From: a virus
Lineage: Duplodnaviria; Heunggongvirae; Uroviricota; Caudoviricetes
Virus record (IMG/VR): IMGVR_UViG_2939521961_000008
Strand: one strand, 5' to 3'
Length of the DNA: 48,101 nucleotides
The notes under the pieces were generated by a model, which saw nothing but the letters and a program-made list of their open reading frames with translations, was not told where the DNA came from and made no database searches. This document shows, piece by piece, positions 2,794-25,186 of the stretch (positions are counted from its first letter, which is position 1; each line of letters starts with the position of its first letter). Both the position numbers and the translations under genes were made by a program.

Positions 2794-5386
2794 TTGCATA
2801 TTCCTTAGCCCAGCGGGGCAGTGATAACGTCTTAATAGCTGGCCATTCATCGGTATTGAGGCAGTCAGCCAGGGTTCGCAGATTGCGGTGATATTCCAGC
2901 TGACCTGCCAGTTTTGCTTCTTCGCCCATCATGAAAATTTCAACCGGATAACGTCCGCATTCAATAGTTGTGCTGGCAACCAGAAAAACGAAAGTTGGCT
3001 GCACTCCAAACTGTGCTTCATAACCGTCACTGTAGAATGCATCCTGAACGTGATAGCGGTAGTCGTAATAAGCGGTTTTGAATCGTTGAATATCCGCCGT
3101 AGTTTTCACGTCCATGATCCAGTGAAATTCAGGGATAATTTTGTCCGGACGGCACCGACACAAAATTGCTGTTTCAGGATCTTCCCAGTAAATTGATGAT
3201 TCAGCGTGTCCGGCGCTTTCAACAAGCCATTGCCCCAGCGGCAAAGCCATAACGCTCTGATACATGAGTTCAATTTTCCGGCCTTCTTCGGCAGTGATAA
3301 CCGTTTTTCCTGTGCTTGCGCATTCCCTCAGAAACGCTTTCTCTTCTTCTTTTCCGGAGTTTGTCCGGCGGTTAAATTCAGGTGCTACGATAAAGCGGTT
3401 ACTGAATTCTTCCGGCTCAAGTACCCGGCAGTGGAAAGCGGTTCCTAAATCGAGCGTTTTTGTCTTTGTGGTGTCCACGGGGGCATTTTTACGCCACAAA
3501 TACAGTGCCGGAGTATCAGCAATGTCATCGAGCTGAGACTTACTGACACCGGGACCCGCGTGGTAATTCTCATTCGAAATTCCGTAATAAATACCTGGCT
3601 CTATGTCTTCTACGATTACGGGATCTGCGACTTCGCCAGTTTCATCACTGCAATCGCGATGCGGATCGCTGCCAGCATTCTCATTGTGCGGATGTTCAGC
3701 GCCTTCCATTTCCTCCGGATCATTTTCCTTAGCTTCAACCTGACTCTCTTCATCGAATGTTTCCTGGTATGTTGCGTCGCCCATCACCGCACCACAGTCA
3801 GGGCAGTTATCCCCGCCAGTCTGGCCGCAGGCATTGCAGGCTATTTCCGGTTCCTGTTGCACTATTGGCTCAGGTTGATTCATATCCGGGCTGGTTTTTT
3901 CCGTTTCTGGCTGGTTCTGGTACACACAATCGCGAGTCTGGATCCCCTTTACCCATTTCGGATCGTTCGGGTCGCTAATTCTGTCAACAAATTCACCACG
4001 TGATGCAGCAAGCAATTTATCGGCATCGACAGGATTTTTTGATGGAATGTTTTTCCGGGCTTCATGGAGTTCTGCCCGCAGTTCCTGATATTTCGCATCA
4101 ACAGAATTTACCTGTGACTGAGCATCCAGCGGCTGCGTGTCCTGATGATGTTCAGTTGCGTCCGGTTCCATTGTTTCAGCCTCTCCCTGTTCAACTGCCG
4201 TTGTTCCAGATGGTTGCGGTTTTTCTTCATAATCCTGTTTTCCTTCTTCTGTTACTCGCTGCGGCATCGGGGCAGAGGAGCGACCGCAGGCAATATCCAC
4301 GATTTCCGGATCAGGGTTGGCATGATCGGTTTCAGTCAGTACTTTGTTCAGATATTCAGTGACGTGCGCGGGGATGACCTCGATCCCAATTGGTGCTTCT
4401 TTTACGGACGCAACCACGATGGCGCGGGAATAATCCAGCCCGCCAGGCATGGTGATGAATTTGTCGCGGAAAACAGAAAAGGGCGGTTTATTTTCAGCGA
4501 TAATTTCCTCAATGCGTTTAGCGTGTGCCGGATGAAGGTTATAGATGTCCAGATCCATTGAACGGGCCAGTACGCCAGTGGCTACGTCCCGCGCCAGTGA
4601 CGTCAGATCGTGTACGAAACCTTCGCCGCGATCGGTGAGGTTTCCGCCGCCAGCATTAGCACCGGAAGCCGTGCGAGTGATGTGTGAAACACGATTACCC
4701 TTCATCCACTCTTTTGTCAGCAGTCCTCGATCGGTGTAGTCAGCGTTCAGGTATGCTTCGAAAAAAGCAGTTATCAGTCCCAGGTTTGAATTACCAGGAT
4801 TAGGGAAAACTTTGTCAGTGTCACGAACCAGTTTGTGGAGTTCGCGAATTTCCAGCGGGTCGAGCAGGCTGGTTTTGTGGGAAACAGCCAGGGCAGTAAC
4901 AGCCGGTAGTTCTTCAGCCCGAGCAATGTGTAATGCCTGGAGTCCGTCGCGTGAAACGTGCGTTACCGGTTTTTCGCTGCCGTGTTGAGCAAGCCAACGA
5001 ATGGGCAGTTCCTGGCCAGAAATTGGGAGTAGCATATTCTCCTCAATCTCAGTCATGTCTTCGCCGTTGACGTTGGTATTGCCTTGATAGTGAGCGTTGT
5101 CTGGTGCTGCTCCCGGTTTTAGTTCCCATGTCATGGAGTCTTTGCTGAGTTGATAGCGTTCACTCCAGGTAAAATCGATCTCACCTTCAGCGGGCAGGTC
5201 ATTAACGACAGGAAAATTCGTGGCAACAGCTTTAAAATAGCTGCTCAGTTTTTTACCTGACTTAACGATCAGGTAGTCCAGAGTGGCACAGGTCGATTCA
5301 AAATCGTTGCTTGCCCACAGGACGACGTCAGGTTCACCGGATGATTTTTTCGCTTTCCGTAACAGGAAGAGTGGTTTTGTGCTCAT
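2786..5386 (-). CDS. recE: RecE exonuclease VIII, full-length 866 aa
   Basis: 866-aa [32 protein letters not shown]... with C-terminal nuclease region; 8-bp overlap with recT as in Rac. Confidence 0.95.
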
Positions 5387-5837: not shown

Positions 5838-6008
5838 TTAAAGTTCATGTGCCATCTGGTCTTTTTCGGCACAAGCTTCACTGCAATATTTTCTCGGTTC
5901 GTCTTTTGATAAAATCCCGTGCATGAAGTGAAGCATTCTTTCAATAGCTTTGCTTTCTTCAACGTCTTTTTTGCAAAGGTGGTAAGCACATTTTATTTTC
6001 TTAGTCAT
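5838..6008 (-). CDS. ydaE: YdaE-like small Cys-rich protein, 56 aa
   Basis: Hand translation [56 protein letters not shown]; ATGA start overlap with kilR stop; under 60 aa so absent from the ORF track. Confidence 0.7.
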   Translation of the reverse strand: MTKKIKCAYHLCKKDVEESKAIERMLHFMHGILSKDEPRKYCSEACAEKDQMAHEL

Positions 6009-6229
6009 CACCATGACTCCGCCTTTACAGGTAAACCATCACGACCGAGGAAGACTTTAATCATGCGGTCAGTAATGCATGTTTTTGTGGTCAGGTTACG
6101 AATATATAGTTTTCGCTTTTTAATATTGTTTGCCGAGGCAATATATGTCCGGCCTTCATGAAGAACATAATCGCCAGGAGTCACACACTGACGTGGTATT
6201 TCATCAGTTCCGAAGTGATGTGCAATCAT
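6008..6229 (-). CDS. kilR: KilR cell-division inhibitor, 73 aa
   Basis: [32 protein letters not shown]... from internal Met of ORF 6008..6241; first gene of the leftward operon. Confidence 0.85.
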
Positions 6230-18704: not shown

Positions 18705-19097
18705 CCGGAAAAAGGAAAGTTTGAGAAACGCGATCTGGCACAGGCGGTTATTAATGCTGCCTACCTGGTGGCCTGTGCAGATGGTGAATGTGAGGCTTCC
18801 TAGAAAGCGAAGATCGAACAGGTACTGCGTAATCAGCCTGCGCTGTCCGCGTTTACGTCAGAAATTAATGCGATTAGCGCAACCATTATCGGTCAGCTGG
18901 ATACGAACTTTAAAATTGGTCGTCGTGCGGCGTTACGTGAGATCGAGGATGTGAAACACGATACGCGTGAAGCGGAAGATGTGCTGGATGTGGCGGTGGC
19001 CATTGCGGAGGCAGACGGCGAAATTGAGCCGGAAGAGCGCAAGGTGCTGGAAGAGATTGCCGGTGTTCTGGGTCTTCGTCTGGAGAATCACCAGTGA
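18705..19097 (+). pseudogene. TerB-like domain remnant: no start codon, in-frame amber at 18801-18803
   Basis: Frame translates ...AYLVACADGECEAS*KAKIEQVLRNQPALSAF...DVLDVAVAIAEADGEIEPEERKVLEEIAGVLGLRLENHQ, resembling the two ADG-x-E repeats of TerB/DjlA-N domains. Confidence 0.5.
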
Positions 19098-19261
19098 CGG
19101 TAAAACTGCGCCTGGCTGTGGCTGCACTCCTGCTGTTTCTGGTGGTGATGGTGGATTTCACCAGCAGAATCATGTCGGTGCTGGCGGATGGGGTGCTGGT
19201 CTGCGGCATTGTGGTATTGCTGTGGCCGGTGATAAAAAGAAACAGCCTGCATAATGCTTGA
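19094..19261 (+). CDS. candidate small membrane protein, 55 aa, two predicted TM helices
   Basis: GTG overlapping the TerB-like TGA (GTGA); MTVKLRLAVAALLLFLVVMVDFTSRIMSVLADGVLVCGIVVLLWPVIKRNSLHNA; not in the ORF track (under 60 aa). Confidence 0.35.
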   Translation: MTVKLRLAVAALLLFLVVMVDFTSRIMSVLADGVLVCGIVVLLWPVIKRNSLHNA

Positions 19262-19428
19262 TTTTTTTGTTTACTGTTTATTAAAAATACTACTGCATGG
19301 TGAATCCCCCTGTGCGGAGGGGCAATCAGCAACCAGGTATATGTGATAATCGCGGATTCAGGTGCTGATACTGAATTCACCGGGAGGCACCCGGCACCAT
19401 GCAAGAAAAAGAATGTGCATGCAAACAT

Positions 19429-19452
19429 GCCCCTCTCCGGAGGGGCTTTTTT
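19429..19452 (+). terminator. rho-independent terminator-like hairpin
   Basis: GCCCCTC-TCCG-GAGGGGC followed by TTTTTT. Confidence 0.5.
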
Positions 19453-19667
19453 ATGGGTAAAAAATGCCCGAATGGGTTCGGGCAATAGCATGAGATACTG
19501 ATATTGTTGTGTTGTTATCGTGTGGATTTTAACCAGGGTTTATCAGGCTGCGCAACTGCGTGGCCTTTTTTCATTTCTTGGGCTGTAGTCCCCGTGTGTC
19601 ATTCAGGCTTCCGGACTACAGCCCACTCCATATCTGATTTAATACACTATCCCGGCCGGGAGGAATA

Positions 19668-22172: not shown

Positions 22173-22669
22173 TGTCGCCGTCATTACGCAAGGCTGTTGC
22201 AGCTGCTATTGGTGGTGGGGCTGTTGCCATAGCGTCTGTGCTCATCACTGGTCCAGGTGGTAACGATGGTCTGGAAGGTGTCAGCTACATACCATACAAA
22301 GATATCGTTGGCGTATGGACTGTATGTCACGGACACACCGGAAAAGACATCATGCCCGGTAAAACGTATACCGAAGCAGAATGCAAAGCCCTCCTGAATA
22401 AAGACCTTGCCACGGTCGCCAGACAAATTAACCCGTACATCAACGTCGATATACCGGAAACAACGCGCGGCGCTCTTTACTCGTTCGTTTACAACGTGGG
22501 CGCTGGCAATTTCAGAACATCGACGCTTCTTCGCAAAATAAACCAGGGCGATATCAAAGGCGCATGTGATCAGCTACGGCGCTGGACATACGCTGGCGGT
22601 AAGCAATGGAAAGGGCTGATGACTCGCCGCGAGATTGAGCGTGAAGTCTGTTTGTGGGGGCAACAATGA
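22172..22669 (+). CDS. R: SAR endolysin (lysozyme with N-terminal signal-anchor-release segment)
   Basis: ATGA overlap with holin; hydrophobic Gly/Ala-rich N-terminus [20 protein letters not shown] followed by a lysozyme-like domain. Confidence 0.8.
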
Positions 22670-23103
22670 GCAGGGTAACCGTTATTATCTCCGCTCTGGT
22701 TATCTGCATTATCGCCTGCCAGTCATGGGCTGTTAATCATTACCGTGATAACGCCATCGCCTACAAAGAGCAGCGCGATAAAGCCACATCCATCATCGCT
22801 GATATGCAGAAGCGGCAACGTGATGTAGCAGAACTTGACGCCAGATACACAAAGGAGCTTGCTGATGCTAATGCGACTATCGAAAGTCTCCGTGCTGATG
22901 TTTCTGCTGGGCGTAAGCGCCTGCAAGTCTCCGCCACCTGTGCAAAGTCAACGACCGGAGCCAGCAGCATGGGCGATGGAGAAAGCCCAGGACTTACATC
23001 AGATGCTGAACTCAATTATTACCGTCTCCGAGGTGGAATCGACAAGATAACCGCGCAGGTTAACTACCTGCAGGAATACATCAGGACGCAGTGCTTAAAA
23101 TAA
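22666..23103 (+). CDS. Rz: Rz-like inner-membrane spanin
   Basis: N-terminal TM helix then coiled-coil rich periplasmic region; follows endolysin. Confidence 0.75.
22871..23050 (+). CDS. Rz1: Rz1-like outer-membrane lipoprotein spanin embedded in the +1 frame of Rz
   Basis: [18 protein letters not shown] lipobox followed by Pro-rich segment [16 protein letters not shown]; start codon choice uncertain (22865 or 22871). Confidence 0.6.
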
Positions 23104-23140
23104 TTTTAATTTCACTGAAATTTAACAAGTGACTTTCAGG

Positions 23141-23169
23141 AAAATGCCTCGCAGATGCGGGGCATTTTT
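23141..23169 (+). terminator. terminator-like hairpin after the lysis cassette
   Basis: AAAATGCC...GGCATTTTT with A-run and T-run flanks (potentially bidirectional). Confidence 0.45.
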
Positions 23170-23321
23170 GTACCGGTATTTCACCGCGCACCGCAGCGCA
23201 CAATAAACACCGAACCTGACCCTTTGGAATGGGCCTTTGAGGATACCAGTTAGTGCTGGCGAGCCTCGGTGGGCTGGTTTCCTGTGCGGCAAAGGTTCAT
23301 TTCAAAGAAGCAGGCAACGCC

Positions 23322-23870
23322 ATGAATGAATTAATTGCGAATCATGACTTCGACTTTCGCCAGTTAGTTACCGCAGCAGAAGGTCAACCGGTAACTGACA
23401 CCTTCCAGATTGCCAGGGCATTTGGTAAACGCCATCAGCATGTGATTAGGGCTATTAAATGTTTGAGATGTTCTGAGGAATTCTCGACAACCCATTTTTG
23501 GGCCGTCGAGAAAATCAATGACTTAGGTATTTTTGACAAGAAACAGATTTACTACCGCATGGACTTTAGTGGCTTCGTTATGCTGGTTATGGGATTTAAC
23601 GGGGCAAAAGCCGATGCTGTTAAAGAAGCCTATATCAATGCGTTTAACTGGATGTCAGCAGAACTCCGTAAGTACAGCGAAAGTTATGAAGCAGAACGTA
23701 ACGCCGTAATGCTGGAGTACATGAAAGAGAAGGATGTCGCCAGCATGTCAGGCCGTCTGCTCAATCGCTGGGGGAGAACGAAAAAACCTCAATTGCTTGC
23801 AAAGCTGGAACGTCTGGAGAGACAGGGACAGTTTTTATTACCGGGATTCGATAAAGGTATTCAAGCCTGA
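23322..23870 (+). CDS. rha: Rha-family phage regulatory protein (ORF track begins at GTG 23253)
   Basis: N-terminal segment VTDTFQIARAFGKRHQHVIRAIKCL typical of the Rha/ORF6N domain. Confidence 0.65.
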   Translation: MNELIANHDFDFRQLVTAAEGQPVTDTFQIARAFGKRHQHVIRAIKCLRCSEEFSTTHFWAVEKINDLGIFDKKQIYYRMDFSGFVMLVMGFNGAKADAVKEAYINAFNWMSAELRKYSESYEAERNAVMLEYMKEKDVASMSGRLLNRWGRTKKPQLLAKLERLERQGQFLLPGFDKGIQA

Positions 23871-24057
23871 CACATTATGCGCTGTATCGTCGCCGTATTC
23901 CCGCATTAACCATGACCGTAGCCCGACGGGGAATTCCTTCTGCGTGAGTGTGCGGGAATAATCAAAAACGATGCACACCGGGTTTTACTGTGCTGACAGA
24001 CGCAGGGTTACCCTCATAGTCGCTTTTCCGGTGCGATGGTGGAAGAAACCGGGATGT

Positions 24058-24252
24058 TCATCCATCATCACTTTGGATTGATGTATATGCTCTCTTTTCT
24101 GACGTTAGTCTCCGACGGCAGGCTTCAATGACCCAGGCTGAGAAATTCCCAGACCCTTTTTGCTCAAGAGCGATGTTAATTTGTTCAATCATTTGGTTAG
24201 GAAAGCGGATGTTGCGGGTTGTTGTTCTGCGGGTTCTGTTCTTCGTTGACAT
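24058..24252 (-). CDS. DUF3950/YlcI-like small DNA-binding protein, 64 aa
   Basis: Opposite strand to all neighbours; MSTKNRTRRTTTRNIRFPNQMIEQINIALEQKGSGNFSAWVIEACRRRL resembles small ribbon-helix-helix-type prophage proteins found between lysis and terminase genes. Confidence 0.55.
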   Translation of the reverse strand: MSTKNRTRRTTTRNIRFPNQMIEQINIALEQKGSGNFSAWVIEACRRRLTSEKRAYTSIQSDDG

Positions 24253-24451
24253 GAGGTTGCCCTGTATTCAGTGTCGCTGATTTGTATTGTCTGAAGTTGT
24301 TTTTACGTTAAGTTGATGCAGATCAATTAATACGATACCTGCGTCATAATTGATTATTTGACGTGGTTTGATGGCGTAGATGCACGTTGTGACATGTAGA
24401 TGATAATTATTATCATTTTGCGGGTCCTTTCCGGCGATCCGACAGGTTACG

Positions 24452-24463
24452 GGGCGGCGACCT
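24452..24463 (+). other. cosN cohesive-end site (lambda-type 12-nt overhang GGGCGGCGACCT); cosB lies downstream toward Nu1
   Basis: CGACAGGTTACG|GGGCGGCGACCT|CGCGGGTTTTCGCTATTTATGAAAATTTTCCGG reproduces the lambda right-end/left-end junction as I recall it. Confidence 0.85.
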
Positions 24464-24640
24464 CGCGGGTTTTCGCTATTTATGAAAATTTTCCGGTTTA
24501 AGGCGTTTCCGTTCTTCTTCGCCGTAACCTAATGTTTTTATTTAAAACACCCCCTGAAAAGAAAGGAAACGACAGGTGCTGAAAACGAGCTTTTTGGCCT
24601 CTGTCGTTTCCTTTCTCTGTTTTTGTCCGTGGAATGAACA

Positions 24641-25160
24641 ATGGAAGTCAACAAAAAGCAGCTGGCTGACATTTTCGGTGCGAGTATCCGTACCATTCAG
24701 AACTGGCAGGAACAGGGAATGCCCGTTCTGCGAGGCGGTGGCAAGGGTAATGAGGTGCTTTATGACTCTGCCGCCGTCATAAAATGGTATGCCGAAAGGG
24801 ATGCTGAAATTGAGAACGAAAAGCTGCGCCGGGAAGTTGAAGAACTGCGGCAGGCCAGCGAGACAGATCTCCAGCCAGGGACTATTGAGTACGAACGCCA
24901 TCGACTTACGCGTGCGCAGGCCGACGCACAGGAGCTGAAAAATGCCAGAGACTCCGCTGAAGTGGTGGAAACCGCATTCTGTACTTTCGTGCTGTCGCGG
25001 ATCGCAGGTGAAATTGCCAGTATTCTCGACGGGATCCCCCTGTCGGTGCAGCGGCGTTTTCCGGAACTGGAAAACCGACATGTTGATTTCCTGAAACGGG
25101 ATATCATCAAAGCCATGAACAAAGCAGCCGCGCTGGATGAACTGATACCGGGGTTGCTGA

Positions 25161-25186
<26 letters not shown>
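24641..25186 (+). CDS. Nu1: terminase small subunit Nu1, 181 aa
   Basis: MEVNKKQLADIFGASIRTIQNWQEQGMPVL... essentially lambda Nu1. Confidence 0.95.

Follow-up and report, generated by a model that had tools for sequence, protein, structure and literature searches.

A candidate structured RNA conserved at the lysis/packaging junction of lambdoid phages

The Rz-to-cos interval and its modules

The DNA analyzed here is a 48,101-nucleotide stretch from a virus of the class Caudoviricetes (IMG/VR record IMGVR_UViG_2939521961_000008), referred to below as the window. We studied its interval between the lysis genes, where Rz1 is embedded inside the Rz gene, and the packaging genes (Table 1). The original prediction had spoken of a slot between Rz/Rz1 and cos, which is correct, since the cohesive end begins at position 24452, after Rz.

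Table 1. Features of the Rz-to-cos interval and its borders (positions in the window)
Feature	Position	Strand	Remarks
Rz (i-spanin)	22654-23103	+	Pfam Phage_lysis, 1.4e-34; final lysis gene, left border of the slot
Intrinsic-terminator-like hairpin	23141-23173	+	Arms 23141-23153 / 23156-23168, then TTTTT; between Rz and rha
rha, orthologue of P22 rha/ORF201	23253 (GTG)-23870	+	Pfam, TIGRFAM, PHROG, P22 identity
IHF-consensus site WATCAANNNNTTR	23513-23525	+	Sole exact match in the 48-kb window; inside rha
Conserved structured element, candidate RNA	23878-24056	+ (late-transcript strand)	179 nt
P1	23884-23890 / 23968-23974		
P2 (repeat, extended)	23896-23906 / 23950-23960		Plus 23909-23910 / 23948-23949
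P3	23917-23921 / 23940-23944		
P4	23922-23924 / 23928-23930		
P5	23980-23982 / 24011-24013		Enclosing 23988-23992 / 24001-24005
P6	24027-24032 / 24048-24053		Conserved 15-nt loop GCGAUGGUGGAAGAA
DUF3950 / YlcI-YnfO gene	24058-24252	-	64 aa; Pfam, NCBIfam, PHROG
cos-proximal noncoding block	24253-24463		Upstream region of the DUF3950 gene, cosQ, cosN
cosQ, GGGTCCT	24422-24428		Also annotated in the 434 record
cosN, 12-nt cohesive end GGGCGGCGACCT	24452-24463		
Nu1 (small terminase)	24641-25186	+	Pfam Phage_Nu1, 3.9e-101; first packaging gene, right border of the slot

In a lambda-cos lambdoid prophage, this interval is the usual segment from Rz to cos. It combines three modules, each assorting among phages independently of the others. 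The first is a P22-type rha gene on the late-operon strand, with a terminator-like hairpin upstream; the second is a noncoding conserved element with sharp ends; and the third is a lambda-type block composed of the DUF3950 (ylcI) gene, cosQ, and cosN. Homology to P22 spans Rz and rha up to ca. position 23773 (91% identity, as also found for the Rz DNA against P22 gene 15), homology to phages 434 and Turner starts exactly at 23878 and continues to cos at 99 to 100% identity, and homology to lambda extends from ca. 24041 to cos. The single island that had been proposed was not borne out, given the three independently assorting modules and the sharp homology breakpoints between them. The exact segment is present in 264 complete Escherichia coli genomes.

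The idea of a variable cargo slot was supported. According to a census of 132 contexts of the conserved element, the interval is variably filled among lambdoid phages, with bor, rha, KilA-N genes, other genes, or none at all. The GC content of the region of rha and the DUF3950 gene was 0.42 to 0.44, versus 0.50 to 0.55 for its neighbors, and both a composition unlike that of the flanks and a variable presence among relatives are marks of a moron. Genes antisense to prophage lytic genes have been described as characteristic of such accessory loci, and lambda bor has been reported to be expressed in lysogens (PMC7067206). The lambda slot that carries bor is the same genomic slot, with variable filling and a composition unlike that of its neighbors. 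However, bor lies on the opposite strand with its own promoter, whereas rha lies here on the late strand, without a promoter-like site of its own.

rha and its upstream hairpin

The assignment of a Rha-family regulator was confirmed, as the open reading frame at 23253-23870 (182 aa if translation starts at the alternative ATG, 23322) matched the family profiles above their curated cutoffs. The protein has an N-terminal Phage_pRha domain (6.9e-21; PF09669, 75.1 bits, cutoff 29.9) and a C-terminal ORF11CD3 domain (4.4e-23), and it matches TIGR02681 (1.8e-20, 73 bits, cutoff 45.95) and PHROG 518, "Rha-like transcriptional regulator" (3e-87, the match beginning at residue 23). It is identical to P22 Rha, the founding member of the family, at 170 of 199 amino acids (85%), and the gene order is that of P22, with rha after Rz in the late operon. 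Its closest known counterparts are P22 rha and, in the same family (PF09669), phi80 rha and ES18 gp79, with the gene likewise directly after Rz/Rz1 and with the same upstream hairpin. The phage analyzed here differs from P22 in the last ca. 25 codons of rha and the sequence downstream, which come from another source; in its lambda cos/Nu1 packaging, where P22 uses pac; and in the presence of the structured element described below, of which P22 has no copy.

Between Rz and rha, within the segment that is 91% identical to P22, there is a hairpin with 13-nt arms that are 92% complementary. Its folding energy was -21.4 kcal/mol (z = -4.7), and none of 200 shuffled sequences folded as well. A simple scan did not list it, but it is a G+C-rich hairpin followed by a U tract, as in intrinsic terminators, and the ES18 record annotates a putative terminator at the same place, in a matching order of Rz, terminator, rha, and element. 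No sigma-70-like site was found upstream of rha in a promoter scan, and the terminator-like hairpin lies upstream of the gene and not downstream, so that rha does not show the promoter and terminator of its own that a moron would bring.

Within rha, we detected an IHF-consensus site that P22 rha has at the homologous position, even though a base of the N4 spacer has changed. This predicted site fits the reported IHF control of rha, a gene of the P22 late operon that inhibits phage growth in IHF-deficient hosts (PMC4936722). As rha is encoded on the strand of the late operon and is preceded by a strong terminator-like hairpin, we regard it as late expressed rather than as obviously lysogenic cargo. 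Its expression would depend on late transcription that passes the hairpin, as reported for P22, and would probably be modulated by IHF. The original prediction of lysogeny-expressed cargo is therefore kept only in part: the variable cargo slot stands, while the lysogenic reading of rha does not agree with its late strand and its lack of a promoter-like site.

The DUF3950 gene

The minus-strand 64-aa gene was also recovered as predicted. Its product matched Pfam PF13132 (2e-20, 72.8 bits, cutoff 25), NCBIfam YlcI/YnfO NF041551 (1.6e-09, 37.6 bits, cutoff 30), and PHROG 949, so that profile searches placed both proteins of the interval above curated cutoffs. The statement that it is the only minus-strand gene in the late region holds at the level of open reading frames: between the lysis genes and the window's end, every other frame of 110 aa or more that does not shadow a larger one is on the plus strand.

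The protein is identical at 61 of 64 positions to the product of an unannotated lambda frame (NC_001416, 48109-48303, complement), as the lambda reference annotation has no ylcI-type frame beside cos, and its K-12 counterpart is ylcI (b4589), in DLP12. In both cases, the frame has the same orientation and is the last one before cos, in a near-identical block. The gene belongs to a block ca. 99% identical to phage 434, and the noncoding DNA from 24253 to 24463 is nearly base for base the same as in lambda, 434, and Turner. The gene is not special cargo of this phage; lambda, 434, and DLP12 all have it in their conserved block beside cos. In lambda and DLP12, ybcW-like and ybcV-like genes lie between this frame and the structured element, whereas here and in 434 the gene directly abuts the element, its stop codon being 2 nt from the 3' end of the latter.

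The original prediction had called the protein DNA-binding type, and we compared it with ribbon-helix-helix proteins (Arc/MetJ/CopG), in which two helices come after an N-terminal beta-strand. An AlphaFold2 model (pLDDT 66) had two helices (residues 19-32 and 34-62), and its monomer contained no strand. The alignment available for this prediction was shallow because the database matches were dominated by contigs of ca. 3.5 kb with error-laden copies of the gene, and with this model Foldseek returned no significant match in the PDB. Sequence searches found no PDB entry and no second Pfam family, and literature searches on DUF3950/YlcI/YnfO returned nothing on the function of the small protein, which might, as a guess, be a ribbon-helix-helix protein. 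In an RNA-seq study, K-12 ylcI is listed as a member of a convergent gene pair whose transcripts overlap (PMC12288877). A crude promoter scan of the minus strand of 24253-24463 found no sigma-70-like site. The gene would be transcribed leftward from a putative promoter of its own, against late transcription, and possibly in the lysogen, as bor is.

A conserved structured element

The original prediction had noted a 10-bp inverted repeat between the two genes, and the repeat is exact: TATTCCCGCA and TGCGGGAATA form a perfect 10-bp pair at 23896-23905 and 23951-23960, with a 45-nt spacer, the earlier "about 23906" being the end of the left arm. The bare repeat is only weakly beyond chance. Such a repeat arose in 7% of dinucleotide shuffles of the 1.35-kb region, the window as a whole contains ca. 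15 distinct ones (32 overlapping 10-mer hits versus a shuffle mean of 3.1), and single-sequence folding energies were unremarkable (z = -1.2 and -0.5). We nevertheless consider it real because it is conserved and covaries in related phages, where it is the central helix (P2) of a 179-nt element and not an operator.

A covariance model of the element found a single copy in the window (195 bits). In the alignment fitted to this model, with 71 distinct sequences and six helices, 96.4% of cells were paired, falling to 34 to 64% when the partner was slid by 1 to 3 columns. Changes on both sides were present in 16 of the 42 pairs, compared with 6.6 ± 1.6 in shuffles (none of 500 reached 16), although the sequences are closely related (77 to 100% identity) and the shuffle controls ignore phylogeny. 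Covariation was also seen in an independent MAFFT alignment, and RNAalifold independently found the same helices, with -84.4 for the forward and -74.6 for the reverse strand. Since G·U cells outnumbered A·C cells (230 versus 43), the fold was placed on the plus, late-transcript strand. The element has sharp ends, with flanks that are unrelated between phages. Together, the compensatory changes beyond controls, the strand-specific G·U pairs, and the noncoding character are those generally expected of a conserved structured RNA. Its single-sequence folding energy was no better than that of shuffles (z = -0.39), and the conservation of the stretch used for gathering is partly circular because loci were collected with a pattern from the element itself. 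An Rfam 15 cmscan of 22900-24700 at an E value of ≤1 gave nothing over 23878-24056 and only weak chance matches elsewhere.

Could the segment instead encode a small protein? Short "hypothetical protein" genes are annotated across it in Sakai (ECs_1218), Turner, ev099, and PhiR40_1, and one frame per strand is open over the 5' half in ca. 75% of copies. These annotated genes conflict in strand and frame, though, no frame is open in all copies, insertions or deletions of 1 and 10 nt occur inside the element, and substitutions have no clear three-base periodicity. We rejected this reading, to which we give almost no credence. A reading of the repeat as a lone hairpin or as a terminator was discarded as well, given the insignificant folding z-scores and the lack of a following U tract; neither P2 nor P6 is followed by one on either strand.

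The same data bear on the proposal that the repeat is a regulatory site common to both genes, that is, an operator between two regulators, Rha and the DUF3950 protein, in an island of lysogeny-expressed cargo. Both frames converge on the repeat, the GC content of the region is below that of its neighbors, the opposite-strand gene resembles bor, and K-12 ylcI is transcribed. However, the arms are 45 nt apart and lie downstream of both frames instead of at a promoter, and their changes are compensatory, with G·U on one strand only, as in an RNA helix and not in a symmetric operator. The repeat and the whole element are found in many phages without rha, without the DUF3950 gene, or without both; the evolutionary partners of rha differ from those of the DUF3950 block; and neither protein matches the PADLOC defense-protein models at an E value of ≤0.01. 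Taken together, we regard an operator island as very unlikely.

Distribution and genomic context of the element

Searches with the model gave matches of 128 to 215 bits in lambda (46868-47035), 434, 21, ES18, SPN3UB, BP-4795, VT2-Sakai, Stx2-86, and DLP12 (K-12, 579009-579177), and none in P22. Among complete E. coli genomes, 4,579 of 5,426 (ca. 84%) carry the element, with a median of 2 copies and up to 11, and its length is 170 to 180 nt. Among the matches listed, the copies have no annotation except for an occasional "hypothetical protein"; the element is unannotated in lambda, K-12, and Sakai and in the carefully curated records of 434 and 21. Outside the phages of Enterobacteriaceae, a pattern scan of genome contigs across species showed none. 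It returned 77 matches, mostly by chance because the pattern specified 17 bases, and the 11 real ones were all in Escherichia, E. albertii, Intestinirhabdus, or evident contaminant contigs.

In all contexts examined, the element follows the lysis genes and whatever cargo comes after them, precedes the first packaging genes, and is oriented as the late operon. Its upstream neighbor in the 132 contexts was Rz (+), Bor (-), Rha (+), KilA-N (+), or another gene, and its downstream neighbor was DUF3950 (-), a ybcV-like gene (-), Nu1 (+), or a terminase gene (+) of either of two further kinds. It is present regardless of the cargo and of the packaging system. On one contig (L023), two copies flank a cargo gene, an arrangement that an additional role of the element as a substrate for recombination would predict. 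Literature searches (ybcV/borD, boundary sequences, DUF3950/YlcI/YnfO) returned nothing about the element, and a preprint on the Pas sRNA mentions none of its flanking genes.

Possible function of the element

Our preferred reading, with a probability of roughly 0.6, is that of a normal three-module Rz-to-cos segment with an RNA element acting on the late transcript, a late rha gene, and a leftward DUF3950 gene. From the comparative sequence data, our best guess is that the element is a cis-acting RNA. It would act as part of the Q-antiterminated late (pR') transcript, most likely in cis, at the lysis/morphogenesis boundary of the long late mRNA, where it could determine processing or stability or could bind a protein or RNA polymerase. 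The conserved unpaired stretches (AAUCAAAAACGAU and GGUGGAAGAA, the latter in the P6 loop) suggest specific recognition, beyond what a plain hairpin would provide.

Lambdoid operons are known to contain cis-acting structured RNAs, such as HK022 put, lambda nut/boxB, and RNase III sites like sib. They resemble the proposed RNA in that they are structured parts of a long phage transcript under antitermination and keep a fixed place relative to gene modules. However, we found no sequence or structural similarity to any of them and no Rfam match at an E value of ≤1. The element is also larger (ca. 180 nt, six helices) and occupies a site of the late operon, after the lysis genes and before the packaging genes, for which the records and literature searched describe no element of this kind.

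A second group of known sequences is that of the "boundary" or linker sequences at lambdoid module junctions, a concept from HK620 and HK97 comparative genomics. Like them, the element is exactly at a mosaic junction, with breakpoints at its ends and, on L023, duplicate copies that bracket a cargo gene. Its conservation might be at the DNA level, as a recombination boundary and/or as a relic or extension of the bor/iss promoter region, with an incidental RNA structure. Along these lines, the 5' half of lambda-type copies has a sigma-70-like promoter on the opposite strand, in bor-adjacent copies only (12 of 12 versus 0 of 103). This sequence, TGGACA-N15-TACAAT on the minus strand, is annotated as a promoter in HK629, and ColV iss loci retain the 5' half of the element. 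The bor-linked promoter and the iss loci indicate that at least part of the conservation could be at the DNA level, and the homology breakpoints, the two copies on L023, and the unexceptional folding energy agree with this. Yet ca. three-quarters of contexts have no bor, and the common variant, to which the copy in the window belongs, has no promoter-like hexamers. The element is also far longer than the linkers, and a recombination linker needs identity and not compensatory changes, so that recombination alone leaves the 16 of 42 pairs and the G·U strand bias unexplained. As a full account, we consider conservation purely at the DNA level unlikely.

The element might also be a trans-acting small RNA or RNA sponge, from the late transcript or from lysogens, targeting host or competing-phage RNAs. 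Its unpaired stretches are highly conserved and purine/A rich, it reaches 11 copies per E. coli genome, and numerous sRNAs bound by Hfq have been reported from the prophages of pathogenic E. coli (PMC4104026). Against this, there is no promoter common to the copies, because the 5' flanks are unrelated, and P6 is not followed by a U-tract terminator. The supplement of the Hfq study gives neither the locus tags nor the coordinates of the Sakai copy, and the anti-sRNAs described there are located 3' of pR', elsewhere than the element (PMC4104026). We therefore dismissed an identity with the known enterohemorrhagic E. coli prophage sRNAs AsxR and AgvB, which lie 3' of pR', and a trans-acting role in general appears quite improbable.

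Returning to the preferred reading of an RNA acting on the late transcript, its boldest form gets from us somewhat less than an even chance. In this form, a functional structured RNA of ca. 180 nt, not described before, would be common to lambda, 434, 21, ES18, the phages with Shiga toxin, and the majority of E. coli genomes and would act at the lysis/packaging boundary of the late transcript. It might be a processing or stability switch, a modifier of the transcription complex, or a binder of a phage protein, and the RNA may double as an exchange point for cargo cassettes.

Implications

The proteins encoded in the interval are unremarkable, and hundreds of genomes already have them annotated. 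What is gained is the element behind the inverted repeat, which is absent from Rfam and unannotated even in the much-studied lambda, whose genetics could test it directly. The element would serve as a landmark in prophage annotation, and its recognition would allow several spurious "hypothetical protein" annotations to be dropped. Should the element prove to be a functional RNA, it would represent an extra regulatory layer in the late operons of lambdoid phages, including those that carry Shiga toxin.

Module structure of the Rz-to-cos interval

The window represents a lambdoid prophage and is in prophage orientation: its left part has an integrase and Rac-like early genes, and its right part has head and tail genes of the lambda type. 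As the original prediction had it, a Rha-family ORF, a minus-strand ORF of 64 amino acids (the DUF3950 ORF) and an inverted repeat occupy the slot between Rz and cos. Since large ORFs tile the plus strand from the lysis genes to the window end, the DUF3950 ORF is the sole evident minus-strand gene of the late region, also as predicted. A further minus-strand ORF precedes both the lysis cassette and a 616-aa esterase-like gene. The longest perfect inverted repeat of the window, between cos and Nu1, probably represents the oppositely oriented terminase-binding repeats of cosB; weak Rfam “microRNA” matches at 24560-24616 were rejected as chance matches to its hairpin.

Features in and around the Rz-to-cos interval (window coordinates)
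Feature	Position	Strand	Remark
193-aa ORF	18910-19491	-	upstream of lysis cassette
Rz	22654-23103	+	last lysis gene
Hairpin, then TTTTT	23141-23168		between Rz and rha
Rha-family ORF	23253-23870	+	alternative ATG 23322
Hairpin, 14-nt arms	23481-23512		in rha coding sequence
IHF-consensus match	23513-23525	+	inside rha
Structured element	23878-24056	+	helices P1 to P6
Inverted repeat, 10 bp	23896-23905 / 23951-23960		perfect
P6 loop	24033-24047		conserved GCGATGGTGGAAGAA
DUF3950 ORF	24058-24252	-	64 aa
TTGYN6TTGY motif	24212-24225	+	inside DUF3950 gene
TTGYN6TTGY motif	24287-24300	+	just upstream of DUF3950 gene
cosQ	24422-24428		
Cohesive end, 12 nt	24452-24463		GGGCGGCGACCT
Inverted repeat, 16 nt	24560-24575 / 24601-24616		perfect
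Nu1	from 24641		

Profile searches confirmed the rha product as a Rha protein (domains Phage_pRha and ORF11CD3, plus TIGR02681 and PHROG 518), identical at 170 of 199 positions to P22 Rha/ORF201, the founding member. The DNA is 91% identical to P22 from Rz into rha, as far as ~23773, including the Rz-rha hairpin (-21.4 kcal/mol; z = -4.7), which folds far better than shuffled sequences. Phage ES18 has the same Rz-rha arrangement, with a putative terminator annotated at the hairpin site. P22 rha has been described as a late-operon gene under IHF regulation that harms lytic growth when the host lacks IHF (PMC4936722). The only exact match to the IHF consensus in the 48-kb window falls inside rha, and this putative site is kept at the homologous position of P22 rha (2964-2976 in the P22 locus, L003). 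The hairpin in the rha coding sequence is directly upstream of it.

The P22-type homology stops within the 3' end of rha, and from exactly 23878 to cos the sequence matches phage 434, Turner and numerous lambda-like isolates at 99 to 100% identity; these carry bor (minus strand) where the window has rha. Lambda is nearly identical from ~24041 to cos. Thus, the single island first proposed resolves into three modules. Strains that carry the exact 1,348-bp segment at 100% identity include O26 and O103 STEC. Matches covering at least 80% of the segment were present in 264 complete E. coli genomes, where it is annotated as “Rha family transcriptional regulator” and “YlcI/YnfO family protein.” Its protein content is already known and ordinary.

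The DUF3950 protein passed the Pfam and NCBIfam (YlcI/YnfO) cutoffs in the profile search that had been suggested; its PHROG family has no assigned function, and no defense-system model matched it. Its lambda counterpart (NC_001416, complement of 48109-48303; L006 3110-3304, minus strand) is identical at 61 of 64 positions, and the counterpart in DLP12 of K-12 is ylcI. Given its presence in 434, Turner, lambda and DLP12, the gene is a conserved part of the packaging-proximal region in this phage group rather than cargo of this prophage alone. The RefSeq lambda record lacks an annotated ORF of this type by cos (only lambdap79, on the opposite strand and further left, is given), unlike that of 434, where the ORF is annotated. 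The 434 record also marks the positions equivalent to the TTGYN6TTGY motifs as CII-binding consensus sites; they are consensus matches only. Genes that run against the late operon are, as a rule, accessory (PMC7067206), and ylcI is among the convergently overlapping transcribed pairs in K-12 transcriptome sequencing (PMC12288877). The 120 listed database “homologues” come mostly from ~3.5-kb contigs, some labeled Staphylococcus or Veillonella; these carry frameshift-like variants and resemble lambda control DNA with sequencing errors rather than real diversity.

A covarying element behind the inverted repeat

Judged alone, the 10-bp inverted repeat is unimpressive: a similar one arises in ~7% of shuffles of the region, ca. 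15 such repeats occur in the window, and folding gives z-scores of -1.2 and -0.5. With the surrounding 175 bases as query, 432 phage records matched (77 to 100% identity), and alignments delimited an element of 166 to 185 nt (TGCGC...GAAGAAACNGGA) with sharp ends and flanks unrelated between phages. Copies were gathered from annotated phages and from IMG/VR, in the latter by a pattern from the most conserved stretch. The element has indels of 1 and 10 nt and no frame open in all copies, and a search of Rfam 15 found nothing matching it. Short “hypothetical protein” CDSs across it (L138 9476-9679, Sakai ECs_1218; L005 2988-3101; L002 3420-3584; L011 1474-1650) differ in strand and frame and are therefore probably spurious gene calls.

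We propose six helices, P1 to P6, of which P2 is the inverted repeat. In an independent MAFFT alignment (60 distinct sequences), standard pairs made up 96.0% of cells, and 13 pairs had changes on both sides, versus 4.1 ± 1.5 after shuffling (0 of 500 shuffles reached 13); sliding the 3' partner by 1 to 3 columns lowered pairing to 36 to 60%. RNAalifold, unaided, returned the same helices. With 71 distinct sequences fitted to a covariance model built from 43, both-side changes affected 16 of 42 pairs (6.6 ± 1.6 when shuffled). For instance, P2 has C to G paired with G to C in lambda and TCC to CAT paired with GGA to ATG in SPN3UB, while one P6 position is G-C (40), U-A (15) or G-U (9). G·U cells far exceeded A·C cells (230 versus 43), indicating that pairing works on the plus strand, the sense of the late operon. 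The stability of the single sequence is ordinary (z = -0.39). The original reading, a moron island expressed in lysogeny whose repeat resembles an operator, is only partly supported: the genes and the repeat stand, but the unity of the island does not, and the repeat is real for another reason, as a helix of a structured element.

The P6 loop contains GATGGTGG, one base off the Chi octamer GCTGGTGG. None of the element variants has an exact Chi at that place; four exact Chi sites occur elsewhere in the window. The near-Chi is oriented as active for RecBCD entering at cos.

Genomic position and distribution of the element

The covariance model found exactly one copy in the window (195 bits), together with matches in lambda (46868-47035), 434, 21, ES18, SPN3UB, BP-4795, VT2-Sakai, Stx2-86 and the borD-ybcV intergenic region of DLP12, and no copy in P22. 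Across 132 contexts, the upstream neighbor was Rz(+), Bor(-), Rha(+), a KilA-N gene(+) or another small gene, and the downstream one was DUF3950(-), ybcV-like(-), Nu1(+), a 933W-type small terminase(+) or another terminase-region gene(+). In all cases, the element was on the strand of Rz and the terminase genes. Thus, whatever the cargo and the packaging type, the element marks a constant place, after the lysis genes and any cargo and before the packaging genes.

It was present in 4,579 of 5,426 complete E. coli genomes (median, 2 copies; up to 11), and the listed matches had no annotation there save an occasional “hypothetical protein” CDS. Beyond Escherichia and Shigella, the copies found were confined to Salmonella phages and a single genome of Intestinirhabdus. 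In the complete E. coli genomes, 695 matches were plasmid borne. The iss (bor homologue) loci of ColV-type plasmids (L136 and L137, each 4001-4096) are lambdoid relics with Rz/Rz1 fragments, iss and the element 5' half.

Possible roles of the element

The data show a fold that is conserved, covaries, is specific to one strand and keeps its place in the operon; it probably acts as RNA inside the Q-antiterminated late transcript. The copies have no upstream sequence in common that might contain a promoter, and no U tract follows P6. Both points make an autonomous gene improbable and leave action in cis at the lysis/morphogenesis boundary as the simplest reading. Such action could mean processing, differential stability, or contact with a protein or the transcription complex; unpaired stretches that hardly vary between copies point to specific recognition. 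We hold this RNA-level reading loosely, given the ordinary stability of the single sequence, the close relatedness of the element sequences and a sampling pattern taken from the element itself.

A further reason for caution is evidence at the DNA level. On their minus strand, lambda-type copies (L006 ~1880-1910, lambda ~46880-46910; L007 1815-1841; L012; L135) have a sigma-70 promoter close to consensus, TGGACA-N15-TACAAT, present in 12 of 12 copies with bor directly upstream versus 0 of 103 elsewhere. This confinement suggests that a likely bor promoter is embedded in the element 5' domain; the promoter is annotated in HK629, and the ColV iss loci keep this 5' half. Moreover, in one viral contig (L023), a single plus-strand cargo ORF in the Rz-to-cos interval has a full copy of the element on either side (5057-5237 and 6007-6187). 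This would be expected of an element that also serves as a cassette-exchange site, and the arrangement looks like the footprint of recombination within the element. Another locus (L050) has one full copy and one truncated. The RNA-level, bor-promoter and cassette-exchange roles are not mutually exclusive.

What the analysis adds is the element behind the repeat, rather than the proteins, which are already known. It is apparently an undescribed, widespread structured element that has phage lambda among its carriers.
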